Shown here: in pieces, positions 16,076 to 63,860 of the stretch | Position numbering within the stretch: position 1 is the stretch's first letter | How the letters are laid out: every line of letters begins with the position of its first letter | Assembly: GCA_051294905.1 (NCBI GenBank) | Contig: CM119372.1 | Span: 24,368,001 to 24,432,000 of the forward strand | Direction: 5' to 3' | DNA: 64,000 bases | Source: Botryllus schlosseri | Lineage: Eukaryota | Translations under genes and position numbers: made by a program | The notes under the pieces: model-generated | Databases searched by the model: none | Seen by the model: the letters and a program-made list of their open reading frames with translations, nothing else | Told to the model about the DNA's origin: nothing

Positions 16076-16297
16076 TTATTTGTAAAATATCATGATCACA
16101 GAGTTGATTAACCGCTCGTCCAGTTGCCATTCAGCGTCCCGTTCATAATCTCTCGAAGCAAAGTCACCGCAGTAATTAGCATCCGCGTTAAATCCTGTGC
16201 TTCCAACGCAAACGTGCTCCGACTCAATTTTTCCAGATTTCATTTTTACTCCTGGACATAACGCATATGCTGATTGCTCCCTGTTGATGACACGAAA
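16076..16297 (-). CDS. ITLN: Intelectin last exon (ligand-binding region)
   Basis: tatag acceptor, then FRVINREQSAYALCPGVKMKSGKIESEHVCVGSTGFNADANYCGDFASRDYERDAEWQLDERLINSVIMIFYK*. Confidence 0.93.
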   Translation of the reverse strand, partial: FRVINREQSAYALCPGVKMKSGKIESEHVCVGSTGFNADANYCGDFASRDYERDAEWQLDERLINSVIMIFYK

Positions 16298-25200: not shown

Positions 25201-26710
25201 TTGTCCTCCTTTTTCTGGTTTTTGAAAATGTCGTCCGATGACGCCTAAATGTCCTTCTTTTTGGCAATTCGTCCTCCTTTACAGCTTTTAGAGCTAAGAT
25301 AATGGATAGATTCGAATTAAAATGGGGATTTAAGACGCTACATAGGAAATCCGTGGTTTGAACGAAAGCGACGACTTTTTTTAGTCAACTAACGGAAAAT
25401 CTGAAAGAAAGACTGTATCTCGGGAGTTGAGCCGGAAAGCTGACCTTTTTTTAGTCAACCAACCGCATGTCGGGAAAAATTTACCATTTTTCCACCTTTT
25501 ACTAGAGGTCGACCGATTATCGACCTGGCCGATTATCGAACCAATATTTGGAAGTTTACCGATTATCGATATTGGCCAATGGAGGCCGATATCGCGGCGG
25601 ATATTTTATATATAAAAAAAATCAAAAATATTGCAAATTCAACGCTCCGTGTTCTCAATCTCGAGAAATAGACGACGCAAAGGGCGATACCTGATGGATT
25701 TACCCTTGCAGGACGAGTTTAACTGGGTTAGCATGTAGAGAAACTATGCTTCCTGAATTACCATCTACATCTACTGGCCTGATCTGCAATTCTGTATAAC
25801 GTTTTGCCTTCAGGGTTGTCCCAATCAATGAATGTGCACAATTAAGCTATAATTCTTTTTAATTTCAGTTATCTCGTTTGTTGTTCAGCTTTCTGTGGCA
25901 TGTGCAAGTGCCATCTTGCTTAATATATAATATTTTTTGCGAAATGGTTCTCGGTTCCTTCCATATTATTATCGGTTGACCACATACTCTTGCATTGCGA
26001 AAAATATGACTTTCACCGAACATTTCTTGCCGACGCATGTACTACGCTCAATGTACCGTTTACTTTAACCAATTTACTTACTATGCCGCAATTATTTACG
26101 CCGGTCGCCGAGTTTATTATTTCATGTAACTTGTATATATAGTTTGAAAGTTTATATAGTTTGAAATTTAACCCTATGTCCCAGAGCACGAAAACTAGAT
26201 CCTTGATTACATATTTTGTCCGTGGTGCACAAGGCCGGAAACGGCGACACGCGCCACTTAAAACTCCTCATTAATAATAATAATAATAATAATATTATTA
26301 TCGGCCTATGATATCTGTATCGGCCTGCAAAATCAATATAGGTTGACCTCTAGATTTTACTCTAGTATTGTATGTCTGAAGATTTGGAAAGTGTCCCCCT
26401 TTCACGATTCCAAAATATGGTAACCCTACTAATACGAGTAATGATTTTGATTCATTGTTTCAATTCGACGTTAACATCGGCTGTAGCGCAGTCGTTCCAT
26501 ACATGAAGCCGATTTAGCGAGGAGTATAGAAAACAAGCTATGCTTAAAGACCGTTAAACACTATATGCTATTCAGAACCGGCATGCGTTATAAATGCTCC
26601 CATGCTGTGTACTACCAACCTCGTTGCCAAGTGTCTTTAAGTTCAAGATGAAGCGTGAAAATTGTTGCTAGTACAACGATTGCTGCAGCGAGTAGTAAGA
26701 TCGCAGCCAT
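16076..26710 (-). CDS. ITLN: Intelectin-like lectin, spliced, six coding exons (26710-26620, 23851-23798, 21893-21787, 18805-18504, 18164-17942, 16297-16076)
   Basis: All introns are GT-AG with compatible phases (1,1,0,2,0). Joined protein: MAAILLLAAAIVVLATIFTLHLELKDTWQR-EYQDIEEKLLQLKERNSK-DSMILESISNPPSSCNEIRRRNDTDKNGLYELQDVE-GNVFRTYCDMGTGVGGWTLVASVHEN...GDRWSSEQG...ATSDDYKN...IWQVPN...-FLKYHTTSGFLKRFGGNL...DNGPAIPV...AGYIQ-FRVINREQSAYALCPG...EHVCVG...CGDF...SVIMIFYK*. This is colinear with vertebrate intelectin motifs. The first two exons and the start codon are less certain than the last four exons. Confidence 0.9.
17942..18164 (-). CDS. ITLN: Intelectin internal exon
   Basis: cacag acceptor and gtacgt donor; SFLKYHTTSGFLKRFGGNLASLFTNHYNMKEKQYRPNVDNGPAIPVTWNRG...VDAGYIQ. 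Confidence 0.93.
18504..18805 (-). CDS. ITLN: Intelectin fibrinogen-like domain exon
   Basis: tttag acceptor and gtacgc donor; GNVFRTYCDMGTGVGGWTLVASVHENHMKGRCTEGDRWSSEQG...ATSDDYKN (ORF track 18422-18778). Confidence 0.96.
18908..19765. mobile_element. Intronic copy of the tagggatggtgtgaac MITE family
   Basis: Ends tagggatg.. / gttcacaccatcccta. Internally homologous to 39627-44305, 40043-42308 and a fragment at ~31915-32232. TSD not preserved. Confidence 0.8.
19958..20640. repeat. Degenerate tandem array (ctaaacggcggaccaagcggaac-like units) with an inverted partner at 20565-20650
   Basis: About 8 irregular units at 19958-20290 plus reverse-complement units downstream, as expected for transposon subterminal repeats. 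Confidence 0.75.
21787..21893 (-). CDS. ITLN: Intelectin exon at the start of the fibrinogen-like domain
   Basis: tgcag acceptor and gtagca donor; PSSCNEIRRRNDTDKNGLYELQDVE matches the intelectin P.SC.EI......GLY.L motif. Confidence 0.88.
23798..23851 (-). CDS. ITLN: 54-bp helical neck exon of the intelectin
   Basis: ttcag acceptor, gtgagt donor, phase 1-1; YQDIEEKLLQLKERNSK. A homologous 54-bp exon lies at 63807-63860. Confidence 0.8.
25169..26428. mobile_element. tagggttaccata MITE containing a nested element (25503-26352)
   Basis: TIR tagggttaccata / tatggtaacccta flanked by CTAATAC. Inner TIR tagaggtcgacc / ggttgacctcta. Same family at 55118-55444 and ~39320-39615. Confidence 0.85.
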
Positions 26711-26775
26711 TACCTTCAAGCAGTTTTTGTTGAACCACCCCTCTGTCTCTACTTTGTCCGATGGTTAATGGCAAC
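26620..26775 (-). CDS. ITLN: Hydrophobic anchor/signal exon of the minus-strand intelectin
   Basis: ttcag acceptor and gttggt donor. There is an in-frame TAA at 26765-26767, then ATG at 26710 giving MAAILLLAAAIVVLATIFTLHLELKDTWQR. The exon is conserved with 54730-54879. Confidence 0.75.
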
Positions 26776-27095: not shown

Positions 27096-28558
27096 CAATG
27101 TTCCCTCTAATTTTTCACGAGTCTGCGCAAATACGCCAACTCACTGCGCAGGCCCTTGGACAAAAGTGCGCAACCAGGCCCGCCATAGGTGATAAACCGA
27201 ACTTCTGGGGGGCTTCGCCCCCAGACCCCCCTCAGCCTAAACGCTTTTCACCGCTGCTAATCATCTATGTCTGTTCTTAGTTTAGTGGGCGTTCCGGCTA
27301 AACGCGCGAAGCGCGAAAATTTTCTATAATTCATCATCAAATCGGTCAATATCATCGGGAATTGCATATATTGCTATCAATTTTAATCCTGTCTCTGCTC
27401 ACGTAATCACATTTACAGGTAAAGCTGATCGAGTGAGATGTGTTGGAAAAGGTAGGCCCCCTAAATATAATTAAACATCTTCGGGCGTGCCCGTTGGTAT
27501 AATGACTTCCTTACATCATGCTATTTCGTGACCTCCTATCTGCTATGCCAGAAGGTATTGAAATCTGGACATAAGTCACTTTGATTCCACTGCGACGATA
27601 TGGTGACATACTATGGATTACTAGAAGACAGACATACACGCACTTGAAATCAATACATGCGATCGATGTAGGCCTACCGCGTTAAAACACTGATGTGACG
27701 TCTTAATACCCGCAATGTACTCATTACTATCAAGACCTACAGTCTGATATAATGATACAAATATTAAAAGTCTGATTGAAGCAAGAACAAGATCAGCGTA
27801 AGACCTTATCGACAGAAGATACCCGTTCAAACGAATCGAATAAAATCACAAATTTGTGCTGCTGAGAAGCTGATCTAATGCAACGCCCTACAGTGCATAT
27901 AGTTGCAGCATTTCCCGATCAACGTTTGCAAAGGGATGGATTTTTTCAACAATATTGGTGCTTGTACTTGCATATTCTGCATATTATCCTATATCACCAT
28001 ACGTGATCAGATTCGCCTGATGGACGTGATGACTTCGAAAATTCGCGGCATTTAATTATACAGTAAATCTTACACAATATTCATGCCACGCGGAGAAGAC
28101 TATTCGTTGCTTTCTCGCAGTTAACTTCGAGCTAGCCCATTGTTATATATAACTTTGTTAAACCATGTTATTTCGCCAATCCCACAAAGGATTGCGCTAT
28201 TGATATGATATCAGTATCGCTCACGCGTACGATACTATAGTAAAAGAAAAATATCTTTCGTGAGTCGCACACGATTGCAAATTCTCATTGCTTCGCGAAG
28301 CGCAATATTTGTTTTTTCGGGCCGCACTTGTAGGCCTACCTCGGTTTCAGACTTCAGCGATAGCACTATTTACCCCTGGCAATGTTCCCTCTCATTTTTC
28401 TCGAGTCTGAGCGCCTGCGCGATGCGTTGGACAAGAGTGCGCAACGATTAAAAAAAGTCATCACTTCGGATTTTTTGTGCGCAGCCTAGATTTTCTGTGC
28501 GCAGAGACCGTTTCAGCACTGCGCATTTGCGCACGTGCGCAGCTTAGAGGGAACATTG
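27096..28558. mobile_element. hAT-type non-autonomous element
   Basis: TIR caatgttccctctaa / ttagagggaacattg, perfect TSD GTGACGAC. The empty site is visible in the paralogous block near 54350. A second left TIR is present at 28380. Confidence 0.92.
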
Positions 28559-30351
28559 GTGACGACACTGTTATGATATATCTGTCGATTTTCCGCTTCC
28601 TCATACACGCTGTAATTCATGGATTGCATCTCGGTATCCTTCTAGCTGTAACTCAGGTAGAATAACATTTAGTTCCAGTGCCACGACAAGTGGATTATTT
28701 ATATATAAACCTAAATAACTGATATGCATTGAATTGAAGTAGGTTGGCTCTGAAGAAGGTATCACGTATGGAGATAATTGAAAGTTCAACAAAAACAATA
28801 CCTGTTCCAGCCGTTCATTCCTAATTTAAAGACTGTAGTATTGCCTTTCTAATTATTTGATGTTGATCTGGTGAAACGCGTTGACTAATATTTCATTTTT
28901 CACTTTTCTGGGGTTACATCGTTCATCCTCACGATCAATCACCGAGTAGGCTGCAAGGCGAAACCAATATGGGCGAGGTTGGAGCATATTGATGATACGT
29001 TCACGGAAACTTTTCCCATGTGAAAACTCTCCAGACCCATACATCCTTCAACGGGCAATTTAATCACTGACCTTTATACATACAATTCACAGACGCACAC
29101 AAACACCCACCGCATCGAACAAGTCCGATGCATTACGTGATCGATCCACGAACGAGCACAACTTGCTAACATTAATGTTATGGAAATAAGTGTGTAATTG
29201 TGTAAGGACAGGACTATTTGATGCCGGACATTCAGGAACCTGTACATATCAATATGATAGGCTTCGGCTAACAAGCGTCGGTTTTATCGCACTCGATCTT
29301 TCTGGTAGCGCACACGCATACTGCTCACGCCTAGATTAGAGCATCTCAACGGTCCCAATGCATGGTCTCGGGCGATACTATGAATATATCATTCTCTCAT
29401 AATTCCGAATGCACCTAAACTCAAGTCTGAAAATCAATCTTATTTTTTTAGATAATTATTAATTAAGGGGTAGCCTACTCAAAATATTACCAGGATATGT
29501 CACACTAAATCACACTAAATCACTTCAAGTTGAATTCATATGTGCAAAATAATTTACTTTATATTGATTTGCGAAAATTGGCGATATATGTGGAGAGACT
29601 ATGGCCCCCTGGCTACGCCATCGGTAGGATATGTCAGCGATTTCGTAGTATATAAGTGTAGGGGTTGAGCATCTTGCAAACAAGATCGAATTTTGCATTA
29701 CTCTGATTTGGCATTGTAGGCCTACCCTTCAAACTCAACAGTTCTTCATTCAAATACGGCCGCAATATTGGTACAGTTTGACAAGAACTTGGGACTGATT
29801 GATAATACTTCTTCCTGAAATCCAAACGAATGCCAATAAACATAGAAATCACTTGAAGCATCTGATTCATCAGATCCGCGACATGAGAATGCAGACAGGT
29901 GACTTCGATGGGGTAACTCTACTACTTCCCTCATCGAGCCTCACCAACGTCAATGGCTTATATAGCAACATATCCGGGAACTTTCTCAACAACGATGCTT
30001 ACTCACGGTAACGCTAAGTAGGCTATTTCGGACGTTTTTTCTGTATACTAGCCCGGTCACTAATCTCTTAGAAAGGATCTGACTTCTGTCATTCTTTCGT
30101 TGTTATACTCACTTTTCCGGATGGTACGTGGGTGCGGATTGTAAGACATACCGCGCGGATGATGTCGGTAATTGTGGGCTGCTTTTGGAAACGTTGGTGG
30201 TTTCGCATAAATAGAAACGATGATGTTTAGTAGATCGATGAAATTTGCATTGGCGATGCAAACAATGACGCAGTGCTACAATAAATAAATCAAAACGGAC
30301 AGAAGCGATATGCTGCGTATATGCCAGCAAATAATATTGTTATGATCTAGT

Positions 30352-32722: not shown

Positions 32723-35700
32723 CACTGGTCGACACAGTTTTTGTTGACTGTGATCAGGCAATTGATTTGGACTAACTTTTGGGCGCTGAATTCAAAAATG
32801 ACTTCCGTTTTTCTCTACCACGTCAAGTTTTTGGGTTAGGCACAGGGCTGTGGAGTCGGTAAATTTTACCACCGACTCCGGCTCCGACTCCGACTCCACA
32901 CATTCTCAATATACCGACTCCGACTCCGACTCCGACTCCTGAGTCTTTATACGTACCGACTCCGACTCCCGACTCCGACTCCAGCATTATTACCAATTTA
33001 CTTCGAAAATTATATGCCACATTGTCGGTTGAATGACTATCATACAACCATTAAACATAATTATGCAAACAGATGATTAACGGTGGCATGCTAAATTGTT
33101 TCATTGTGGCACAGCTCGAATTATCCACTATACAATTAACGTGAAAGAAAGATTTGCTAAATATCCTTCCTTTTTGAAGTTTTTATAACATGTACTCTCT
33201 AATATCCTGAAATGTATGAATCATTCAAATATGGCAGATATCCAATCCTGTATAATATAAATGTTGATAAAAAATCCAAGTGTAGCTCTTGTGTATGAGT
33301 CAGCAACTAATAAAGAGATTGAACTTACTAATTTTGTCATTGCACACTATCCTGATTACAAGCACACACACTCTTTACTACTAATAGACATTGGTCATAA
33401 ATGGAATTCAGTTAAGTAGTCAAGACCATAGCCTATGTCTAGTCTACATGTAGGCTACTTAATCAAGTAGGCCTATTCAAAAATTGGGACTTGCAGTCTT
33501 TCTTAATCATTTGTTCGACCTAAACAGCTAAGCTACCCTACAAATATTTTTAATTTTGTCAAGTGGGAAGCATCGTTTGGTCATTTTTACGTCATTTTTC
33601 CAATTTTACAAAACCAGCAAATGCATTTGCTCTGTTACAGTATCATGGTATAATTCCAAAAATTGCATCAATTTTGACTGTATCGCGAAAACGTATATTG
33701 CGATTTTCTTCCCTGTGCAACTGAGTTGTAATTTGCAAGTGATGTCTAATTTTATCTATATCAAGGGTGGCAACTTTTTCGGCCAAAGGGACACATGAGA
33801 TTTACGAACCATTGCGCGGGCAACTGGAATGTTGATAACCTTTTTTTAGTCGTCCAATAGGAGCGAACCGAATTAGGTAACATTGCAAACAAGATTTATA
33901 CGCTCTAAAATTGATAAGAATATGTCATGCAACTGTGCGGCGCGCAATCAGGCCCTGGTCGCGCGAAGCGCGAAATTTTTTTGCAAGATAATGACTGAAT
34001 TATATCAATAAATATGTTGCTAACATACATTGGGGATCGCATCTGTATACCACTGGGCTCATTTGGCAAGGACAGGATTATTCGACGTTTAGACATAGCA
34101 GAATCGACGGTATCAGTGAACATGCCTCTATCATTTTGTGCAAATGTTTTGTCGACGATCTCGCTGCGAGTGCACAAGCGAAGCCGCATGTTGGACGACA
34201 CGTTATCTCCTAATTGCGAATATAGTTAGACTCAATTCTGTGAATAATATGTATTTATAATTTTCAGAAGGGGGCTCAAATACTGAATGCAGGAAATCTA
34301 GTGACAATAAATCATGCGAAGTATGTACCGAGAAAAATTTCAAGTCAAATAAATCTGCTATGAAATATTCTACTTTATGGTCATGTACGAAGATATAGAA
34401 TAAATGTGGCTAGGGTTACGTCAATGGATACGTCAATGCGTCAGAACTGTTGTTTAAGTCATCATCAAATTTCGCGGTCATGCTAATCAAATTTTGGTTG
34501 GCCTGGCAATTGTACCTGATGTCATAAATAATTTCGAGAATTACCTCGCAGGCCACACCTAACCTTCTCGTGTGTCAAATTTGGCCTGCGTGCCACGGGA
34601 TGGCCGCACCTGATCTGTATGGTTATTAATAACAGTGATTGGTGGTACATAAATATTATATTGAAAATTCTTTAAAAGCAAATGTTTTCATGATAGAGAA
34701 GTTGGAGTCGGAGTCGAAGTCAGGGTCATTCTCACAAACTCCGACTCCGACTCCAATCAGTATTTTCCCCACGACTTCGACTCCGACTCCAGCTATTATA
34801 TTTTTCACGACTCCGACTCCGACTCCGACTCCATCAAGCGAAAATTACCCAGACTCCGACTCCGACTCCACTGACTCCGACTCCGAATCCACAGCCCTGG
34901 TTAGGCACCCCCCACATTGCCTCAAAACCCACAAAATAGCACTACTTTAATATTTTGTGTTTATGGTATAAAACGTTTCAAAAACTACAAACAGTCGAAA
35001 GTAAATCATTAGACATCAAATAAACATTTGCACTGCTTTATTTGGTTGATTTAAACTGATATTGCTTGTACTGGACAAATAAAGTAGAGTTTCACGGTCC
35101 AAATTCACGCTAATAACCCATAATTCTGTAGGTTGTCTATAGTTTGATACTCGAGCAATAGTCAGCTAACATATGTAAGCTCCAATCTACTCTGGTATCT
35201 TATCCCCATCATCCCCATGGGGGACATTTCCTCCTTGGCCATCTCTGACTATATCAAGGTTTTCAGGAAAATTATTAAGATATTTTAGTTTTTTTTTTTT
35301 TAATTTCTGTTGTCCGACATAAACATATGGCAGTGGCACATGTGTATCAGGGTTGCATGTGCTGTGCATCCTTATTGTCTGAAAAACAAAGAAAACACAA
35401 TATTTCAAATCTAACACATACGATCCAATCGTGCTCGTGATATTGCAACAATTCTATGTTCTGTATTGTTCTCAACGTTTCTGTATTATTCACGAAGACT
35501 AACTGAGTGTGCAATTGTTACTGCACCTAAGACGTTGCCATTTTGGAGAATGCCACACTTTAGGATCCTTTTTGAGCTACCTACAGGCATTTGTCATTCA
35601 CTTGAGTTCTAAATGGGGATTCCTAACTCCTCCAGTAATCCATGGTGAAAGTATCATGCCAATACCAGTATCATGGCGATAGGCTACAAAAAGCTACCGA

Positions 35701-37695: not shown

Positions 37696-37914
37696 TTTCG
37701 TGTCATAAACCATGAACGAAACGCATTTGCTTTATGCCCCGGAGTGAAAATGAAACCCGGGCAAGCGAATGCAGAGCTCGCATGCATCGGAAGCACTGGT
37801 GAAACCAGGACCGATTGTTACTGTGGCGACTTTGCCGGGAGATCTTGTGGTGTAGTCAGCTGGTCACGGGACCCGCGGCTAGTCAGCTCCGTCGTCATGA
37901 TATTTTACAGATGA
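37696..37914 (+). pseudogene. ITLN: Orphan intelectin terminal exon with intact reading frame
   Basis: tttag acceptor, then FRVINHERNAFALCPGVKMKPGQANAELACIGSTGETRTDCYCGDFAGRSCGVVSWSRDPRLVSSVVMIFYR*. Same phase and boundary as 16297-16076. No upstream plus-strand intelectin exons were found by eye. Confidence 0.85.
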
Positions 37915-52557: not shown

Positions 52558-53103
52558 GCGACAATCTTTATGGGAGGTACCAAAATAATAACTTGCTTCT
52601 ACGATGTATTTAATAGCAATGGACTCACCCATAACTAACTTGCGAAACCGTATGAATAGTCATAACCGTCTGGTATGAAAACGACTCAAGTTTTATAATT
52701 AGGCTACGTACCCTAAGTTTTTGAAGACACCACTTGCTCATGTATCCGAAATGCATGCAATATGTGTGTGGGGAGCGGGTTTGCGAATTGTATGCATAGA
52801 GGGCAGTGATGACATTCCCCGTCGAAGTATGGACAGGTCTGGAGGGCTTTCCAATGGGAAAGTTTCGTTGAATATATCGTATATTTTCCACCCCAACCGA
52901 CCAATTTTGTTTCTGGTTACCGCTGCGCCTTGCCAGTACTCGATTGACTATGAGAACGGACGATGTAAACGCGAGAAGAGTGAAAAATGAAATATAAGCA
53001 AACGCGTCACCAGATCAATATCAAATCATTAGAAAGGCAATATTACAGTCTTCAAATCGCACATGAACGGCTGGAGCATACATTGTTTTGCTGAGCTTTC
53101 AAT

Positions 53104-54126
53104 CAGGGCTGTAGAGTCGGTAAATTTTACCACCGACTCCGGCTCCGACTCCGACTCCACACATTTTCAATATACCGACTCCGACTCCGACTCCTGAGTC
53201 TTTAAACGTACCGACTCCGACTCCGACTCCCGACTCCGACTCCAGCATTATTACCTATTAACTTCGAAAATTATATGCCACATTGTCGGTTGAATGACTA
53301 TCATACAACCATTAAAGATATGCAAACATATGACTAACGGTGTCATGCTAAATTGTTTCATTGTGGCACAGCTCGAATTATCCACTATGCAATTAACATG
53401 AAAGAAAGATTTGCTAAATATCCTTCCTTTTTCAAGTTTCTATAACATGGACTCTCTAATATTGCAGACTTGCAGTCTTTCTTAGTCATTTGTTCGATCC
53501 AAACAGCTAAGCTTCACTACAAATATTTTTAATTTTGTCAAGTGGGAAGCATCGTTTGGTCATATTTACATCATTTTTACAATTTTACAAAACCAGCCGA
53601 TGAATTTGCTCTGTCACAGTATCATGGTTTAATTCCAAAAATTGCATCAATTTTGACTGCATCGCGAAAACGCATATTGCGATATTCTTCCCCTGTGCAA
53701 CTGAGTTGTAATTTCCAAGTAATGTCTAATTTTATCTATATCGGGCGATGGCAGCTTTTTCGGCCAAAGGGTCACATGAGATTTACGAACCATTGCGCGG
53801 GCAACTGGAATGTTGATAACCTTTTTTTAGTCGTCCGATAGGAGCGAACCGAATTAGGTACCATTGCAAACAAGACTTATATTAATACGCTCTAAAATTG
53901 ATAACAATATGTCATACAACTGTGCAGTGGGCTATCCGGCCCTGGTCGTGCAAAGCGAGAAGTTTTTTTGGCAAGATAATGACTGAATTATATCAATAAA
54001 TATGTTGCTAACATACATTGGGGGTCGCGTCTGTATACCACGACTCCGACTCCGACTCCGACTCCATCAAGCGAAAATGACCCAGACTCCGACTCCGACT
54101 CCACCGACTCCGACTCTACAGCCCTG
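53104..54126. mobile_element. (ACTCCG)n element, internally deleted copy
   Basis: TIR cagggctgtagagtcgg / ccgactctacagccctg, TSD CTTTCAAT/CTTTCGAT. Empty paralogous site at ~28777-28784. Confidence 0.92.
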
Positions 54127-54729
54127 CTTTCGATTCTCTCTACACGTGATCGACTACCTTTTTAAGTTCCAGCTTACTTGAATTCAATGCATTAACAGTT
54201 ATTTGTGTTTATCAATGAATAATCCAACCACCGTGGCACAGGGGACTACGTGGTATTCTGCCTGAGTTACAGCTAGAACGGTACGGAGATGCAATCCATG
54301 AAGTACAACGTGTATGAGGAAGCGGAAAATCGACAGATATATCAAAACACCTTTGTCCCTAAAAATGGTGAATATTCTTTCGAAAATATTCACACTCCTT
54401 AAGTCCTAAATATCTGATGTAATTCTAGACAATGTGAATATGAACTATTATTTCTTGATGCGTATAAGACCATTCTCTTCGTCGGTAGGTTACTATATGA
54501 TTCCCGCTTTATGTTTGGCATCAAGTTGCATTCAGTAGATTTCACTACATATATTGCAAAATGCAGTGGTCATGATAAATAGGAGACAGTTTGTCACAGT
54601 TGCGATAGATTTATATGGGGGACGGAGATCAAGGTTTCAAAAGACGCTAACAGAGCCCCAAAAAAAATGCTTGGGAGTGAGATATCTGTCGCATTAAAAC
54701 TGCTATGTAATAAATATCGTTCCATTTAG

Positions 54730-54879
54730 GTGGCGATCAACCATCGGACAAGGCAGAGAGGCGGTTCGGCCAAAACTGCGTGAAAGGAATTGCTGTCATC
54801 TTACTACTCGCAGCAGCAATTGCTGTACTAGCAACAATCTTCACGCTGCATCTTCAACTCAAAGACACTTGGCATCGAG
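54730..54879 (+). CDS. ITLN: Transmembrane-anchor exon of a plus-strand intelectin paralog
   Basis: tttag acceptor, gttggt donor, phase 1-1, open frame GDQPSDKAERRFGQNCVKGIAVILLLAAAIAVLATIFTLHLQLKDTWHR. Homologous to 26775-26620. Intelectin identity is inferred from paralogy. Confidence 0.75.
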
Positions 54880-54912
54880 GTTGGTAGAACAGAGTATGGC
54901 AGCTTTTGTAAC

Positions 54913-56434
54913 CAGGGCATGGTATGTTATAGTATGGAACGAGAAATACCATACTTACGATTTTTCATACCATAGAAACATTCTTCCATACCATATATTG
55001 ATACATTTTCTATACTTTCGCAGTTGCCCAACCTCTCATCTAATAGTTATTTTTGGTGTGTGGAAATTTTCCGGCGTTTCTACTATGATTATTTTTGGTG
55101 AAATTATTCATTAAAACTAGTGTTACCATACGTCCTCTTTTTGAAGGATTTGTCTTCTTTTTTTACTTTTTTGAAAGTGTCCTCGGAGGACGCCCAAATG
55201 AGCTCTTTTTTGAGAATTTTAGTTAAATGTCGGGCAAAATTCGACTCAGATACAGTAAATTAGCACTGAAGTAACGCTACGGCTGCTATTTCGGGAGCTG
55301 AGTCGGAAAGTTGACCTTTTTTTAGTCAACCGACCACGAAGTGCGAAAAATTTACCATTTTTCCGGGATTCTCCTCCGATATTGCTAGTCTGAAAATTTT
55401 CAAAAAGTGTCCTCTTTTCAGATTTCCAAAATATGGTAACCCTAATTTAAACAGTCTTGATGCACTAATTCTAACCCCAATTTCTTTTTGTCGCATGTCT
55501 GCGACGTAGGTTGCGTAATCATAGAAGACGGAACGTAAAATATGTAGGATTATTGGGGAATCGCAACAGAAGCTCATGACATCTAAAACTAGTGTGGCAA
55601 CGTACTGCTAGCAGTAAACTACAAAATTATATACAACAAATATATTGTCCCATCAGAATATATCCTAGAATACAATTTAACTTCGCTACAATGATTAGGG
55701 ATTTTGCGATAGGGAATTAAATGTCCGATTGCTTGCATAGGTGTGGGTGATACTCATTAGCCAACATCAGGGTTCGATTCTTTTATCAGAGATAACCCGA
55801 TTTAATGAAGTTACGATGTCTGTTATAGAGACCGGCATGGCGTAACATCGCTCCGAGACAAGCTACACATTTTTTAAAATTACAATGATGCGTATGTCAA
55901 ATAGATATTGCGGAATGACTGATGACCATCCGAGCAAAGCACAAGAAATGATTTCCTAGTGCACCAAATTAATGTGAATATCCATGTAACTGCTACATTC
56001 TCAGACTTTACGATTTTTAAACTCCTCTTGGTAGCTTACGGAGTTGAAGTTACGGTATTCGAAATGTAAAATGTGACGCTGTAACGCCACAGTCGTCAAA
56101 TATCATTCATTTTAAGATCTATAGATTGTAATAATTTTCATCAATATTATTTCCTTCATATTCTCGTTGCACAACTAATTTGTATTCAAATAGATGTCAA
56201 CCGGGTTGAGAAATGAACATAGAACTGTCAGTGAATGATTTTCTGAGGTATGCCGTCGATTCGACAAATCGAAAGAATGGGATCATTACCATGGTTCGGC
56301 AATACTATACCGAAGTATGGAAGTATATGGAATATAATTTCCACACCATATTGGAAAACTTACATACCATGCAATGCTTTCACATTTCCGTATTCCATGC
56401 CGAAATTCCGTTCCACATGCCATACCATACTCGA
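54913..56434. mobile_element. Intronic hAT-type element (atacc/ggtat repeats) with nested MITE 55118-55444
   Basis: TSD TTTGTAAC on both sides, ends cagggcatggtatg / cataccatactcga (degenerate). The empty site is at ~26586-26593 in the paralog. Inner TSD ATTAAAAC/ATTTAAAC. Confidence 0.8.
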
Positions 56435-56688
56435 TTTGTAACTCACGGCGGTTCTGACTATTATATAGTGTTTAACAGAGGTGGTCAGTAACGAAGTACT
56501 TCTACTTTTTCGAAGTAGGCCTACTCAAGTAGTTTTGCTCTACTAGTGGTACTAACTCAAGTAGATCTTTTTTTCGCTACTTCTACTTCTACTTCATAGT
56601 ATTTTGTGATCTACTTACTTACTTTTCGCTATTTTCAGTTTGTTAAATAGAAGTAGTTTAATCCTCCAATAAGAAAGATAGCCTAAGG

Positions 56689-57085
56689 CAGTGGTTCTCA
56701 ACCGGAGGTCCGCGAAGCCTCTAAATTTGAAGAATGGTTGATAACTTAATTTGTAATTTTTTGGAATTAGAGAAATCAAGAGGCAGTTTCGCTTCATAAC
56801 TCACATAAACTGTATGAGATGATATATTCTACTGTGCAAACTCCTTCTAATTGCCAAATTGCCACAAGCCTACTGATACAGACATATTGCTGTTCAGGGA
56901 CGTTTTGTTGGGGTTTTGGAAAATAGCTTTGTTGCTGCTTATCACTATGCTACAGATGATACTTGCACTGGACAGAATACCGTTGCACGATAATAGAGCT
57001 AAATTTAAACTAAAACTTTGGTGTCTGCGGGGGTCCGTCACGGTCCAAACGGGGTCAGCGAAGACAAAAACGTTGAGCACCACTG
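56689..57085. mobile_element. Nested hAT (Buster-type) MITE
   Basis: TIR cagtggttctcaac / gttgagcaccactg, perfect TSD GCCTAAGG. Empty site gcctgagg at ~42544. Confidence 0.92.
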
Positions 57086-58166
57086 GCCTAAGGAATTTCG
57101 GGACTGTTTTCACGAAGTACCAACATTTAATTTTCATAAAAGTCATGTCATAACCAGAATTTTCGTGGCGCCTCTCGCACAGTAGATATGGAGTGACAAA
57201 TATGTTTTAACGAAAGTATCGCTGAATATAACTTAGATACCGCGTTGCGTGGTTCCGTTCACACCGCATTGTCGCCTATATCATATTTCATCGCAGTAAG
57301 TATGGGCCCCCCATAACGTTTGAAACTACCGTTTCGCTATCTAGCAATTACCTATTATACCTATAGCAGCCCATGACGTGTCCTAATCTGGAAAAGCGGA
57401 CTTAGACTTTTTGAACGTTAGACCTGTTTTAGCAAACCACAGTTTATTTATTTATTGGAAGAAGAAAAAGAGTGGTGCCAGCAAACCACGGTTGAAACTT
57501 TCTAGACAAACGATATGAAATATATTTTCCGCTTTTTAGAAGTAGTATTTGTATTTTTCTTTCGATTACGAGTATTATACGTTGAGTTCTAATTATAGTT
57601 TCAGTTCTTTTGTTTGGAGAACATACATGTCGAAGTATAAAAGCAAGTGTAGTAATGCCTTATATTTTCCGAAAATAAAGCAATACAGTATTTTTACGAT
57701 CAGCCATATATTTAATTAACGTATGCTAATCGCGCAAAGTGTTAAAGTCATGTCCGACACCACTTGTCCGAATTGCTCTTCGACTGAACTAGGGGCCTTA
57801 TAATTTGGGGGAGGGCGCCATGCCATGATATTCTCTAAAACGGGGTGTTCGAGTAAACAAAGGATTAGTATGGCATTTCCACATCAATACTATCATTTAT
57901 ATCCCATGATGTGGACAACTGCTTATTCCGTCAAAAATTGACACCTCCTGTGATGCATCAATATGAATCAAGGGATTCGCGTCTGACCGCCGAGGTGTGC
58001 GGACGTGTCTAAATTGAGCAGCTCATCCTGCAATCAGCGTCGAGAGCTTGTTGCGAGGTTTTGGTCTTCTGGTGTAAAGGCTTACTTGTAGTAATACTCT
58101 AGCGGTACTCGGATAGGATTACGTGCAGTGAGAAGTTAATTGCTGTATAAGCCACCATCCAGCCTG

Positions 58167-59546
58167 ATGGCAGCGGATGTTGGTAACGATGACATGGAAT
58201 TTACTGTTGTCACGTCAAAACGCAGTAAAAGGGGTTCACAAAGCGAGTCTGATTGTGATAGTCCGCCATTGAAAGCAATGAATAATAAGTCTGATGCAGA
58301 CTATTCTGGCCGCTCAGCCGATCCAGCTCGCACCGAAAATTTGAAAATAGTTGTTAAGGGTAAAGATAGGAAGATGAAACACTATCATCCTACCACAGTG
58401 AACAAGTGCTTACACGCAGTGATTGGTAATTATGAAGGGATCCGTGTCTTCCCGTCGGGAGACTTACTCGTCACCTGCCACAATCGCATGCAGGCCGATA
58501 AGCTCCTATCTCTAGATATGTTTACGGACGGAGTAGTGTCAATTCCAATTAATACGGGATGTTACGATGAGAGTAAACTGCATCAGCATGCGTCTAGGGC
58601 CGTTATCCGAGGTGTGCCAGCTGACATGTCAGAATACGAAGTTGTTGAATTCCTCAGCGAATCACACGTGTGCTTTGCTAAACGTCTAAAACGCAAGTCC
58701 ACTGATGGCTATGTTGCTAGTTTGTCAATGCTGCTCGGGTTTAATGTTCCAACACCTCCAGATGAGTTGTATATTGGATATCTTCGATTCAAGACCAATC
58801 CCTATAATCCTCCCCCATTGAGGTGCCACCGATGCAATCGATTTGGTCACACGAAGGCAAATTGCGGCGGAAGAAAAACGTGCTCCAAATGTGGGAGTCA
58901 TGAGCATGAACATCATCAGTGCGATCAGGAAAAGAGGTGTGTCAATTGTAAAATGCCCCATAGCGCAGCATACGGTGGGTGCCCAGTGTATAAAAGGGAA
59001 GCCAAAATACAAATAATTCGAGAACGAGAGAGTCTATCGTATGTCGATGCTAAATCCAAAGTATCGCATGTCGATGCTAAATCAAAAGCACCAGAAACGT
59101 CTTCACATACACAATTGTCGCCAACTCCCAGCGGTAAAACTTATAGTCAGGCTGTACACAGACGGCAGGCTGTACACCAACGTCAGAACGCCTCTGCTAT
59201 GTCAACTTCGGCGAAAATCAGTCCACCGCGACAACCCCTTCCAAATGATGCGAACTTATCATTTTTGGAGACCTCTTCTCATGTAAACGAGGCCACCGAG
59301 GCCGCCAGTACCCCGTCCGAATCAGATCACGACTCGTCAATTCTATCTATCATGTCTTCTACACATCCGTTACTATTCTTCGCATTCATATGCGAAATTG
59401 TGAACCTCACAGCTAAAACTTGTCGTTCAAGCGATGATATCGATCTTCCGTCATTGATTACCTCCGCGGCTCAGAAGTGGCTAAGCGTTTCTTTCGACCC
59501 TGAATCACTGAAAAGCCTTTTGAGCGCAGTTCCACAAAATGTATAA
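58167..59546 (+). CDS. LINE ORF1, gag-like nucleic-acid-binding protein with three CCHC knuckles
   Basis: CHRCNRFGHTKANC, CSKCGSHEHEHHQC and CVNCKMPHSAAYGGC. The first ATG is at 58167; the ORF track starts at a TTG at 58140. Confidence 0.95.
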   Translation: MAADVGNDDMEFTVVTSKRSKRGSQSESDCDSPPLKAMNNKSDADYSGRSADPARTENLKIVVKGKDRKMKHYHPTTVNKCLHAVIGNYEGIRVFPSGDLLVTCHNRMQADKLLSLDMFTDGVVSIPINTGCYDESKLHQHASRAVIRGVPADMSEYEVVEFLSESHVCFAKRLKRKSTDGYVASLSMLLGFNVPTPPDELYIGYLRFKTNPYNPPPLRCHRCNRFGHTKANCGGRKTCSKCGSHEHEHHQCDQEKRCVNCKMPHSAAYGGCPVYKREAKIQIIRERESLSYVDAKSKVSHVDAKSKAPETSSHTQLSPTPSGKTYSQAVHRRQAVHQRQNASAMSTSAKISPPRQPLPNDANLSFLETSSHVNEATEAASTPSESDHDSSILSIMSSTHPLLFFAFICEIVNLTAKTCRSSDDIDLPSLITSAAQKWLSVSFDPESLKSLLSAVPQNV

Positions 59547-62500
59547 GAACGCTGGTGTTCTTATACTGCAATGGAACTGCAGAGGAATATACAGGAAGTT
59601 ACCTGAACTGAAGAACTTTATAGAACAACTCCCTACGCCTCCTGATATTATGTTAATTCAAGAGACACATCTTATTGATAAATATGTTCCAAAGATTAAA
59701 GGGTACATCATGGAAAGAAAAGATAAAACACTTCGCAGTGGTGGGCTAGCCATTTTAATCAATAAGCAATTGTCTTATCGAATACTCGATATTCATTCAC
59801 CCGGTGGTGGTATAGATACGCTGTGCATCGAAGTGAACGGTTTGCGGATCTGTAACATATACTGCTCTCCCGAATACCGAGTTGTTGATGGTGACTTAGA
59901 CTTCTTGGGTGACCTGTCCGACAGGTCTTTGATATTAGGTGATTTCAATGCCCATCACTGGTCATGGAGTGCTGGAAACTCGAATCGCAGAGGTCACTTG
60001 TTGTATGATTCGATAAATCGGCATGGATTGGTAACCCTGAACGCAACGAGTCCAACTCGCATCAATACTGCATACAACGCAGTGAGCAGGGCCTCACTCA
60101 TCGACTTGTCACTGGCGTCGGCAGATATCGCACACTCGTGCTCTACCAACGTGACAAACTCCCTATTAGGCAGTGATCATTTTGTCATACTGACATCTTT
60201 ATTGGCTAAACTACCCCGCTCTAACAAACGTCCGCTCACTTGGGCCCTCTCGAAGGCAGATTGGGCGAGCTTTCGCCAGATCCTTGATCTGTCCGAGGTG
60301 CCAAATTTAGGGAACAACATTGACGCCATGGTCGACAAATTCACTAGTGATGTATTATGTGCGGCCAGCCTGTCCATTCCAATCAAGAGAAGTCACAGTC
60401 GCTCATCAGTACCATGGTGGAACGACGATTGTGCCAGGGCTGTGAGAAAGAAGAAGGCAGCGTTTTTGAAAATGAGGCAAACGTTTGATGCGCAATACAT
60501 TGCTGAATTTAAACGTAGTCGTGCACAGTGCAGACGAGTGATACTAACAGCGAAACGTGAATCATGGAGATCCTTTTGTGAAACACTTGGCACCAGGGGA
60601 AATCTCCAGAAAGTGTGGAGTGTCGTCCGTTCTATTTCGGGCAATCTTTCTAATAGTTCGGTGGCATCTTTGAAAGTTGGGAGCAATTATATTACTGACG
60701 AAAGAGGAAAAGCACAAATACTAGCGAAGACATTCCAACGTTGTAGCAGCTCTTTGAATTACCGTCATAGGTTGGACTTGAGAGCTTCACTCCTCATAGA
60801 AGTCGAACACCATAGGAACGATACTCTTCTGAACAATCCTTTCACGATTGCAGAGCTCGAGAAAGCACTGAAGTCGAAAAAAGACACGTCCCCGGGACAT
60901 GACACTCTTTGCTACTCCATGTTCAAAAACTTCCCGCCAGATGCCCTACTCAGTATGCTTTCGGTGATAAATAACTCATGGTGCAATGGGACTGTCCCTC
61001 GCAGCTGGAAGCACTCGATTGTTATTCCAATTCCCAAAGGAAACAAGGACCGATCAGACCCACAGTCATATCGTCCTATAGCCTTAACCAGCCACCTCTG
61101 TAAAGTGATGGAGACGATGATTATGAAGCGACTATCTTGGTATCTAGAAAAGCACGGCTTACTCCACTCAGCTCAAAGTGGCTTTCGTCGGGGACGGCGG
61201 GCCCTGGATCATGTTCTCCGATTACACGATGCCACTTACAAAGCTATCCATAATGGAAGATCGGTCTTGGCTGTCTTCTTAGACATCGAGAGAGCATATG
61301 ACATGGTGTGGAGGGCTGCTGCCATCCATAAATTACGGGAAATGGGTATTTCGGGGCCTTGTCTTTCTTGGATCAACAATTTCATACACGACCGTACTTT
61401 TCAAGTTCGAATCGGGACAACGTTATCCGACATTTTCCTCACCGAAAATGGTATTCCGCAGGGGAGTGTGCTTAGCCCTTTGTTATTCAGCATTATGATA
61501 AATGACCTTCCAACAGTTATCGAGTCAGACATGGGGCTCTATGCGGACGATTGTGCCATTTGGGAGGCCGGTCTTGCTGTTGACCAACTTGCTCAAAACA
61601 TTCAGTCATCCCTTGATCAGATCCATCGATGGTGTGTAAAGTGGGGTTTTATGGTATCGGTCGAGAAATCCGTAGCAATGGTTTTCACGAAAAAGCGAAA
61701 TTATGCACAACCTGTACTCAAACTTGGAAGTCATCAACTGAGGTATGTGGAATCCTTCAAATATTTAGGTGTCACTTTTGACAAAAGACTCAACTATAAG
61801 ATACACACATCTAACGTTGCATCCAAATGCGCAAAGCGCATGAATTTACTCAAAATGGTATCCGGCACATCTTGGGGTGCATCCACTCGAACGCTATTAA
61901 CCCTGTATAGGAGCCTGATAAGATCCATCATAGAGTATGGCATGGAAGCGTACTTCTTCGCACCGAAATCATACCTCACGAAAATAATATCAATCCGCAA
62001 TCAAGCTCTGAGACTTTCTTGCGGTGCCATGTCCAGCACCCCTATATGCGTATTAGAGGCCTCGTGTAACGACATGCCCCTTTTTCTAAGGCACCAATAT
62101 CTTTGTCTCAAGTACCGTTCCAAGATCAGAACACAACAATCAAACCCAGCACGCAGTTTATTGGAGGGTTCATGGGAGGAAATGTACAATCTACTCTCGG
62201 ACCGATTTGTGACTTTCAATCTCTTATCCCGACTTCAAATATTGGATGATTTGCAAGTCAGAGGTGACCACCCTCTAACCATATGCCCTTGGTTATTGAA
62301 ATGCGCTATGATTGATACATCATTACAAACAGCCCTCGGACGCGATCCACCAAGTCACCTTGTCGATGCTATATTCAGAGATTATATTTTTGAGCAATAC
62401 CCAAACAGAATGCTAGTTTACACCGATGGATCTAAAAACATCAACGGTGCTGGGTACTCCTTCTACATCCCCGATCGCAATATAAGAACATCAAAAGTAT

Positions 62501-63252
62501 GTTCGAAACTCCTATCAATCTTCTCGATTGAGCTGAAAGCAATATTCGATGCACTGATATGGATTTCAGAAAATTCCATCGAACGAGTTGCTATTCTGAG
62601 TGACTCTTTGAGTGCATTGCTGTCGTTGAAAAACCATCTTGGTGAAAATAACTATATTACCAATCAAATATTAGAACTAACTCACCATCTCTTACATGAA
62701 AGCCATAGAGATATTTCTTTCGTATGGATTCCAGGACACTGTGGTATTGAAGGGAACGAAGTCGCTGACCGACTTGCGAAAGAGGCTTCGGCCCATGACT
62801 TGGCTGACCAAAGTGTAGATCTTACTTCTAGCGAGGCCAACTCATTGATTTTAGGTCGCTGTAGGCAAGACTGGAACCAACGTTTCATTGAAACCGCCTC
62901 TGGAGCACATTTCAAACAGTTCTGCCCTGACATATACACAAAACTACCTACTTTTACCACGCCACGCCGTGCCGAAACCACCATTTTCAGATTACGCACC
63001 GGACACTGTCGTCTCAACTCCCATCTTAACAAAATTGGATGCTCCGATACCCCTGATTGTACCACATGCCATGTAGAAGAAACTGCAGAGCACGTTATTA
63101 TGGAGTGTGCAAAGTACGTTAATGAAAGATGCCAGTTTAGAGCTGCCGTAATGGACCTGAGAGTACCCTTCACCATGGAAAATGTAATAACAAGTGATTA
63201 TATATTACCTTTGCTGTGGGAATTCCTTGCGAAGACAAAAAGACAATACTAA
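59539..63252 (+). CDS. LINE ORF2: AP endonuclease, reverse transcriptase, RNase H and C-terminal CCHC
   Basis: ILQWNCRG..IQETH..LGDFNAHH..SDH (endonuclease); YRPIALTS..QSGFR..FLDIERAYD..GIPQGSVLSP..LYADD (RT); VYTDGS..ELKAI..ILSDS..WIPGHCGIEGNEVAD (RNase H); CTTC...HVIMEC. Confidence 0.98.
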   Translation: MYKNAGVLILQWNCRGIYRKLPELKNFIEQLPTPPDIMLIQETHLIDKYVPKIKGYIMERKDKTLRSGGLAILINKQLSYRILDIHSPGGGIDTLCIEVNGLRICNIYCSPEYRVVDGDLDFLGDLSDRSLILGDFNAHHWSWSAGNSNRRGHLLYDSINRHGLVTLNATSPTRINTAYNAVSRASLIDLSLASADIAHSCSTNVTNSLLGSDHFVILTSLLAKLPRSNKRPLTWALSKADWASFRQILDLSEVPNLGNNIDAMVDKFTSDVLCAASLSIPIKRSHSRSSVPWWNDDCARAVRKKKAAFLKMRQTFDAQYIAEFKRSRAQCRRVILTAKRESWRSFCETLGTRGNLQKVWSVVRSISGNLSNSSVASLKVGSNYITDERGKAQILAKTFQRCSSSLNYRHRLDLRASLLIEVEHHRNDTLLNNPFTIAELEKALKSKKDTSPGHDTLCYSMFKNFPPDALLSMLSVINNSWCNGTVPRSWKHSIVIPIPKGNKDRSDPQSYRPIALTSHLCKVMETMIMKRLSWYLEKHGLLHSAQSGFRRGRRALDHVLRLHDATYKAIHNGRSVLAVFLDIERAYDMVWRAAAIHKLREMGISGPCLSWINNFIHDRTFQVRIGTTLSDIFLTENGIPQGSVLSPLLFSIMINDLPTVIESDMGLYADDCAIWEAGLAVDQLAQNIQSSLDQIHRWCVKWGFMVSVEKSVAMVFTKKRNYAQPVLKLGSHQLRYVESFKYLGVTFDKRLNYKIHTSNVASKCAKRMNLLKMVSGTSWGASTRTLLTLYRSLIRSIIEYGMEAYFFAPKSYLTKIISIRNQALRLSCGAMSSTPICVLEASCNDMPLFLRHQYLCLKYRSKIRTQQSNPARSLLEGSWEEMYNLLSDRFVTFNLLSRLQILDDLQVRGDHPLTICPWLLKCAMIDTSLQTALGRDPPSHLVDAIFRDYIFEQYPNRMLVYTDGSKNINGAGYSFYIPDRNIRTSKVCSKLLSIFSIELKAIFDALIWISENSIERVAILSDSLSALLSLKNHLGENNYITNQILELTHHLLHESHRDISFVWIPGHCGIEGNEVADRLAKEASAHDLADQSVDLTSSEANSLILGRCRQDWNQRFIETASGAHFKQFCPDIYTKLPTFTTPRRAETTIFRLRTGHCRLNSHLNKIGCSDTPDCTTCHVEETAEHVIMECAKYVNERCQFRAAVMDLRVPFTMENVITSDYILPLLWEFLAKTKRQY

Positions 63253-63806
63253 ATGTTTAGTTGACTGTATTTACTTATCGCAATATCGATTCGATTAGCA
63301 ACCGTTACGTCGTGACGCAAAAGACCATAGTTGTTATATGCGTCACTAAAATCGCTTTTAAATATAATAATAATAATAATAATATGAATCAAGCTCTCTA
63401 CACCTTCTGTATAGCTCCATTTGCAGCTTTTGACAGTTCAGGCGAACGAATTGAGATCGCTTTCACATCTACTCACTTACTTGAGTATATTTAAAATCAG
63501 TCAATTCTACTGGTACTTCAATTAGTTTTAGGTTGCTTATGAAAGAAGTACTTCTACTCATAATTGAGTAGATTTTTTCGTCGCTACTTCTACTTCTACT
63601 TGAGTAGCTTTCTTGACTACTTTGACCACCTCTGGTGTTTAACGGTATTGATACATGTATTGTTATCTACTCCTCGCGAAATCGGCTTCATATATGGAAC
63701 GACTATGTTACAGCCAATGTTATTCGTCGAGGTGAAACAATCCCTTATCCATGCATAACATGGACATTAGACATGTTTTAAAGCGCTCTTCCTCCTCCTA
63801 TTGCAG

Positions 63807-63860
63807 AATACGAGAATATTGCAGAAAATCTGGAGCAAATCAAAGAAATGAATTCTAATG
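63807..63860 (+). CDS. ITLN: 54-bp neck exon of the plus-strand intelectin paralog
   Basis: Pyrimidine tract plus ttgcag acceptor and gtgagt donor; YENIAENLEQIKEMNSN. Same length and phase as 23851-23798. Confidence 0.78.

Follow-up and report, generated by a model that had tools for sequence, protein, structure and literature searches.

Intelectin genes of the tunicate Botryllus schlosseri with a conserved tail, an internal hydrophobic segment and a helical stalk: candidate type II membrane lectins

Intelectins have been studied as soluble lectins that mark microbes via non-self sugars. Can an intelectin also be fixed in the cell membrane? The question is raised by a 64,000-nucleotide stretch of the genome of the colonial tunicate Botryllus schlosseri (assembly GCA_051294905.1, contig CM119372.1, here C2, positions 24368001-24432000; this whole stretch is called the window and its numbering is used below). 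It holds parts or all of two intelectin genes, one on each strand, for which an earlier note on this DNA had proposed the build of a type II receptor, with tail, membrane anchor, helical neck and lectin domain. That build is the best supported reading of this intelectin subfamily, with a probability of roughly 0.6 on the sequence evidence. The internal segment, the coding tail, the stalk and the lectin domain of the proposal stand; the first exon lies elsewhere than was suggested, and both copies in the window are flawed. On this reading the window would hold two members of a three-gene subfamily, the third being on contig C15 (locus L022), each gene combining a 46-residue tail, a 21-residue hydrophobic segment, a heptad-repeat stalk and a lectin domain. 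The products would be cell-surface lectins with the amino (N) terminus inside and the carboxyl (C) terminus outside, and the segment would act as an uncleaved signal anchor.

The tail and putative membrane exon

Central to the case is exon 2 of the plus-strand gene, 150 nucleotides (nt) at 54730-54879 (+), flanked by AG at 54728-54729 and GT at 54880-54881 and of phase 1-1. It encodes the second half of the tail, in which a charged stretch is followed by the 21-residue apolar run, and then a juxtamembrane motif (LH..., TW.R); no ATG occurs in it in any of the frames. The internal exon read here in the earlier note, with its charged stretch, some 21 hydrophobic residues and no methionine, is therefore real, and so is the amphipathic neck exon described with it, which occupies 63807-63860 (+), is 54 nt long, AG/GT-bounded and of phase 1-1, and has hydrophobic residues in the 3-4-3 spacing of a heptad. 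Counterparts of both were said to precede the lectin domain of the minus-strand gene, and they do: they lie at 26620-26775 and 23798-23851 (-), and four intelectin exons follow.

In the 495-Mb genome this tail/transmembrane (tail/TM) exon has five DNA copies with 78-100% identity, and at the protein level ten matches in total, five of them weak; the four weak ones inspected all show the same exon. All seven copies checked are bounded by AG and GT, with lengths that are multiples of 3 and compatible with phase 1-1. Because copies across the genome keep their splice boundaries, the exon is not a product of chance. Similarity begins at the acceptor: when the plus gene, the C15 gene and a further locus, A, are compared without gaps, the 60 flanking bases are only 0.45-0.58 identical.

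First exon and predicted cytoplasmic tail

Where does the protein begin? The start first suggested, MGDGDQ from an ATG at 54615, does not hold, as its C15 counterpart is out of phase and its minus-gene counterpart stops after 9 codons. The corresponding exon, 54615-54633, is rejected, plus/minus conservation there being no higher than in the surrounding intron. An upstream exon was nevertheless rightly expected, and its coding part is found at 54289-54367 (+), comprising an ATG, 26 codons and 1 nt, with a phase-1 GT donor at 54368-54369. Comparison of the upstream regions of four loci reveals shared collinear conserved blocks, and exon 1 lies inside one of them, block A3 of the four-way paralog alignment. 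This 79-nt open frame, with its ATG and its donor, is identical in length and phase in four of five paralogs (plus, C15 and the loci A and B considered further below); the sequence flanking C15 exon 1 barely aligns, in contrast to the exon itself.

The plus and C15 models accordingly have a hydrophilic tail of 46 residues, with the hydrophobic run beginning at residue 46. Four paralogs (plus, C15, A and B) share a KYNV motif encoded by exon 1, and the tyrosine of the motif occurs in all five; a second tyrosine three residues further on is kept in three of the five, and no named signalling motif is assigned to the pair. The part of the tail encoded by the TM exon is open in nine of ten genomic matches (eight of the nine that were read, plus a C7 match as given in the search table), the exception being the minus copy, and all six pairs compared have a ratio of nonsynonymous to synonymous differences (pN/pS) of 0.24-0.71 there. 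These ratios, and the length, ATG and donor phase that exon 1 keeps in four of the five paralogs, indicate that the tail is coding.

The hydrophobic segment

The 21-residue run has a Kyte-Doolittle maximum, over 19 residues, of 2.85-2.95. As a comparison set, 120 database intelectins were listed, 110 of them starting with methionine, and in 40 of these a comparable apolar run begins within the first 15 residues; in those 40 it measures 6-17 residues, with a median of 12. Later and clearly longer runs occur among the listed proteins only in P0072, P0106, P0114 and P0052, the last of which, with a run of 20 residues at residue 44, is probably a mis-extended model. The plus and C15 models predict a single internal hydrophobic segment of membrane length with no signal peptide before it, and the short cleavable N-terminal signal peptide of characterised intelectins does not appear in either. 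Conservation covers the end of the segment and the next ten residues and reaches distant copies on contigs C7 and C13; across eight TM-exon sequences L25, A34, I36, L39, H40 and W47 are invariant.

Stalk and lectin domain

The stalk that follows is of 60-90 residues and is built of 54- and 75-nt exons, with a heptad spacing that was read by eye. Two such exons of the C15 gene, X and Y, are each 75 nt long and of phase 1-1, are 69% identical to one another and encode 25 residues with a 4-3-4-3 hydrophobic spacing. Homologs of the X/Y type are present at locus A, at 70830-70904 (+) in window-equivalent numbering, where one follows the 54-nt neck exon of the plus gene, and at 24069-24143 (-), where a Y-type exon bounded by AG and GT and of phase 1-1 stands between the TM and neck exons of the minus gene. 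An N-x-T site is present in all three of the X-type exons printed. The order and number of stalk exons differ among the paralogs, a difference that arises easily because every stalk exon is symmetrical, of phase 1-1. The stalk would likely drive trimerisation of the products.

The four exons that follow the stalk encode a domain whose sequence identifies it as an intelectin (X-type lectin) domain. In a search of the PDB with exons L2 and L4, all four matches were to intelectin chains: minus-gene L2 (18504-18805, -) matches human intelectin-1 chain 6usc_A with E 1.7e-33, minus-gene L4 (16076-16297, -), which contains the stop codon, matches XEEL chain 4wmo_F with E 5.3e-10, and L4 of C15 matches a PDB intelectin with E 2.5e-13. 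Database relatives number 652 at E <= 0.001. The stretch aligned to human N-T-E-H reads N-x-E-H in C15 and plus and E-x-E-H in minus, C15 has Asp at the aligned Glu, and at the aligned Trp C15 has Phe and minus has Tyr; this stretch and the aligned Glu and Trp are presumably residues that bind calcium and diol. The loop following C-G-D-F is shorter than in solved intelectins. Within the N-x-E-H stretch of the putative calcium site, at 16220-16232 (-) in minus L4, Glu takes the place of an Asn that is present in plus, C15, the Styela proteins discussed below and solved intelectins.

According to PMC8185196, human intelectin-1 forms disulfide-linked trimers and uses calcium to bind exocyclic 1,2-diols. 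Calcium would likewise mediate the binding of microbial glycans by the lectin head of the Botryllus proteins, and signalling or uptake, if there is any, would run through the tyrosines of the tail.

The three genes and their RNA

Gene models were built from coordinates. In all three genes (eight exons in plus, seven in minus and nine in C15) each acceptor is AG, each donor is GT and the phases match, and the frame of the C15 model is intact and open for 430 codons. The lectin exons of the plus gene lie outside the window, as the earlier note anticipated in pointing beyond 64000: a tblastn search with the minus-gene exons found all four 10-19 kb past the window end, at window-equivalent 74014-74120, 79690-79991, 82214-82437 and 82702-82920 (+). 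The minus gene runs from 28629 down to 16076. Its exon-1 homolog (28551-28629) has an ATG at 28629 and an open frame, its tail/TM exon is 156 nt long, and the six exons downstream of the latter are intact; besides those already placed they include L1 at 21787-21893 and L3 at 17942-18164. Exon L2 has 34 matches genome-wide at E <= 1e-10, 26 of them near full-length and three of these 26 with a stop; a tail/TM exon copy precedes only three of the L2 matches, those of the plus, minus and C15 genes.

Reads from four RNA runs, X7-X10, were mapped on the minus gene, and those from X10 on the C15 locus, joints in fewer than three reads not being listed. A run search listed no RNA run and returned two runs with a low share of words (0.17 and 0.25) that were taken, from their size, to be low-coverage DNA. 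The sole joint listed at the C15 locus, from L022:6521 to 5784, connects exon X to exon Y in 10 X10 reads with 10 different starts, skips 736 nt and has CT..AC ends, which are GT..AG on the gene strand. Binned X10 depths of 0.38 for exon 1, 0.81 for the TM exon, 1.46 for X, 1.32 for Y, 0.17 for the neck exon and 0.40 for L1, and of 0 in the two bins that immediately precede the TM exon (L022:7015-7682), fit the C15 gene model without proving its junctions. What the RNA shows is only the splicing of two stalk exons, in a transcript whose identity to the C15 gene is 97% or more. At L022:5759, in exon Y, six of six X10 reads differ from the assembly (C>G).

Anchored, decayed, shed or secreted?

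Several observations weigh against the type II reading. The charge bias across the segment is modest: Lys and Arg together number 4 on the N-terminal flank and 1-2 on the C-terminal one, and the net charge is +1 to +2 on the former versus -1 on the latter. In the minus gene and three C7 copies an in-frame ATG coincides with the hydrophobic start or lies close to it, and in A and B one stands eight codons upstream, so that some members could begin with a bare N-terminal signal. In exon 1 pN/pS is 0.42-1.12, from small counts. The plus gene is open for 314 codons and then meets a +1 shift at a T7 run in lectin exon 3 (82389-82395, window-equivalent), with stops following. The minus gene is damaged at its 5′ end, where a 10-nt deletion removes the conserved donor of exon 1, and its tail/TM exon has a 6-nt insertion and, three codons in, a TAA (26767-26765); an ATG at 26710-26708 falls exactly where the hydrophobic run begins. 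At L022:6578, in exon X of the C15 gene, four of four X10 reads are one letter short, which would shift the frame of the exon; as no second copy at least 97% identical to this gene is present in the assembly, the allele that is expressed seems to differ from that in the assembly and may be frameshifted.

The plus frameshift and the minus 5′ damage make any claim of functional receptors from this locus uncertain, and they support the strongest alternative, that both window genes are decaying duplicates (pseudogenes) and that the C15 paralog alone, if any, makes an anchored lectin. This is a serious contender, if not the favoured one. It gains from the sense-oriented 5.1-kb retrotransposon in intron 2 of the plus gene and from the RNA, the minus-gene exon bins having a depth of 0 in runs X7-X10 but for about four X10 reads; these, over minus L2, carry exactly the three letters that distinguish C15 in that interval, and the mapping result was not counted as evidence on expression. 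It loses from the state of what remains. Every plus exon is open apart from the extra T, and read one base later past the T7 run the gene continues as a conserved intelectin C-terminus through to the stop; the gene is complete but for that one T, which would be an assembly error or else a frameshift of recent date. Homopolymer length errors are a frequent assembly artefact. In the minus gene no stop interrupts the four lectin exons or the two stalk exons, and their splice sites are canonical; with its tail lost, the gene is decaying or else begins at the ATG of the hydrophobic segment.

A second alternative accepts the type II membrane precursor and has its ectodomain shed from the stalk, the soluble part being the working form. 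In its favour, other type II proteins that undergo shedding offer an analogy, and a long stalk gives a protease room, but a reading of the stalk exons showed no dibasic site or other recognisable processing signal, and this course of events is unlikely. More unlikely still is cleavage of the segment as a long signal peptide, which would make the products secreted oligomers of the usual intelectin kind on a coiled-coil stalk, similar to those of Styela clava: although the Styela proteins P0010-P0012, sister to these genes in the tree, have short signal-like runs, collagen and a helical neck, the ATGs at the hydrophobic start of the minus gene and the three C7 copies would suit such a peptide, and small residues occur within the segment (V-L-A, for example), this is countered by the conserved coding tail of 46 residues ahead of the segment in plus and C15, by a run of 21 residues against a maximum of 17 in the 40 database N-terminal runs, by the lack of any ATG whatever in the plus and C15 exon, and by the conservation of the segment end and the residues following it.

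The cassette elsewhere in the genome

Each of the near-identical loci A and B (L003/L014 and L004/L015, at C2:21.48 and 21.38 Mb, with L008/L009 downstream) has exon 1 together with the tail/TM and 54-nt neck exons, and locus A has its X-type 75-nt exon a further 15 kb downstream. Over 20 kb downstream, neither locus is followed by an intelectin exon, and the closest L2-exon match on C2 is at 23155284, a distance of 1.7 Mb; the loci may be relics, or the cassette there may belong to a different ectodomain. More distant homologs of the tail/TM exon occur on C7 (L017, L018 and L019, at 20.29, 21.30 and 21.37 Mb) and on C13 (L020, at 17.49 Mb); with 33-40% identity to the plus exon they keep its phase 1-1 structure and the motif that follows the segment. 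A Pfam search of the open frames that follow the TM exons on C7, C13 and at locus A, 136 in number, gave nothing above threshold, the two matches below it being DUF7498 and a hAT dimerisation region; for the C7 and C13 exons, 88 open frames within 7-8 kb downstream contained no Pfam domain.

Other features of the window

Intron 2 of the plus gene contains a complete-looking non-LTR (long terminal repeat) retrotransposon at 58140-63252 (+), a long interspersed nuclear element (LINE) of 5.1 kb in sense orientation, whose two open reading frames encode 468 residues without a Pfam match and 1242 residues with AP-endonuclease, RVT_1 (E 1.7e-37) and RNase H domains. At 37696-37914 (+) stands a lone homolog of the last intelectin exon, with an open frame and 55% identity to minus L4; as no further intelectin exon was found to precede it on that strand, it is probably a gene fragment. 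Low-complexity stretches at 32800-33080, 34640-34950, 53030-53260 and 53980-54180 would read, depending on the frame, as Thr-Pro, Asp-Ser or Arg-Leu runs, and as they recur upstream of both genes they are probably part of a dispersed repeat.

What an anchored intelectin would mean

If the type II reading is right, an intelectin fixed in the membrane, with a conserved tail and a repeat stalk, is a receptor and not an opsonin, and invertebrate relatives of the vertebrates have reached the 'lectin receptor' design using a different head fold. A wider proposal, speculative and doubtful as a whole, is that a tunicate lineage has evolved an X-type-lectin equivalent of the C-type lectin receptors in the form of trimeric type II intelectins, made with a duplicated and shuffled phase 1-1 cassette that also heads other, as yet unrecognised ectodomains (on C7, on C13 and at C2:21.4 Mb), in which a conserved tail tyrosine couples the binding of microbial glycans to uptake or signalling in immune or epithelial cells. 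The practical value of the window is limited, with both of its copies flawed and anchored intelectins already among public gene predictions. What is new here is the true first exon, the 75-nt stalk exons, the intact C15 paralog and the flaws in the two window copies, and the putatively anchored subfamily is a real addition to an already known intelectin family.

Comparison with known systems

Has such a protein been described before? No transmembrane intelectin was found in the titles and abstracts listed by literature searches or in passages of PMC6321704, PMC11452194 and PMC9953650; two papers outside that scope, Wesener et al. 2015 and Yan et al. 2013 (Dev Comp Immunol), may bear on this. 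The claim that the subfamily is undescribed survives to that extent, no describing paper having been found, but the build itself has precedent in predicted proteins. The earlier note had advised a search of tunicate proteomes for proteins with both a transmembrane segment and an intelectin domain. Public predicted proteins of this kind are P0072 of Clavelina lepadiformis and P0106 and P0114 of the amphioxus Branchiostoma, in which a tail of 19-46 residues and an apolar segment of 21-24 residues are predicted along with an intelectin domain. Their N-terminal modules are unrelated to the tail/TM exon, P0072 having in addition a WSC domain and P0114 collagen, and they fall in other clades of the tree, which suggests separate origins of anchoring; with three unrelated modules, in this subfamily, in Clavelina and in amphioxus, intelectin anchoring seems to have arisen more than once. 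Relatives of the tail/TM exon itself were sought among 5.8 billion proteins, none appearing at E <= 0.01 with this short, low-information query, and with a profile of eight TM-exon translations among 1.84 billion representatives, none appearing at E <= 0.001 with a short profile of weak power.

Within the tree the plus, minus and C15 genes form a starred clade with a support of 99 in the Shimodaira-Hasegawa-like approximate likelihood ratio test (SH-aLRT), and the Styela clava proteins that carry a short N-terminal run and collagen are its sister, unstarred, with an SH-aLRT of 91. The nearest named relatives are the Styela proteins P0010-P0012, 'intelectin-1-like', with 70-73% identity over L2, a closeness that points to a genome of stolidobranch sea-squirt type. 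Before the lectin domain they have a helical neck that resembles, by eye, the product of the 54-nt exon, and together with P0015 of the same species they have a short N-terminal hydrophobic run and Gly-X-Y collagen; unlike the Botryllus genes, P0010-P0012 are without a tail or a long internal segment. The secreted intelectins of known structure (human intelectin-1, 4WMQ/4WMY/6USC; XEEL, 4WMO; and the lamprey serum lectin, 7E1E) have the same lectin domain, and in the Botryllus genes their N-terminal signal-like run is replaced by the 46-residue tail, the internal 21-residue segment and the heptad stalk.

FIBCD1 is alike in build and has a fold related to that of intelectins, its head belonging to a different lectin subfamily; no sequence likeness between it and the tail/TM exon was detected with a short profile of weak power. 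In the type II proteins DC-SIGN, langerin and CD23, a tail, a signal anchor and a repeat coiled-coil neck carry a C-terminal calcium-dependent lectin head. The fold of that head is unrelated to the intelectin fold, and the resemblance of these receptors to the Botryllus genes is one of architecture only.

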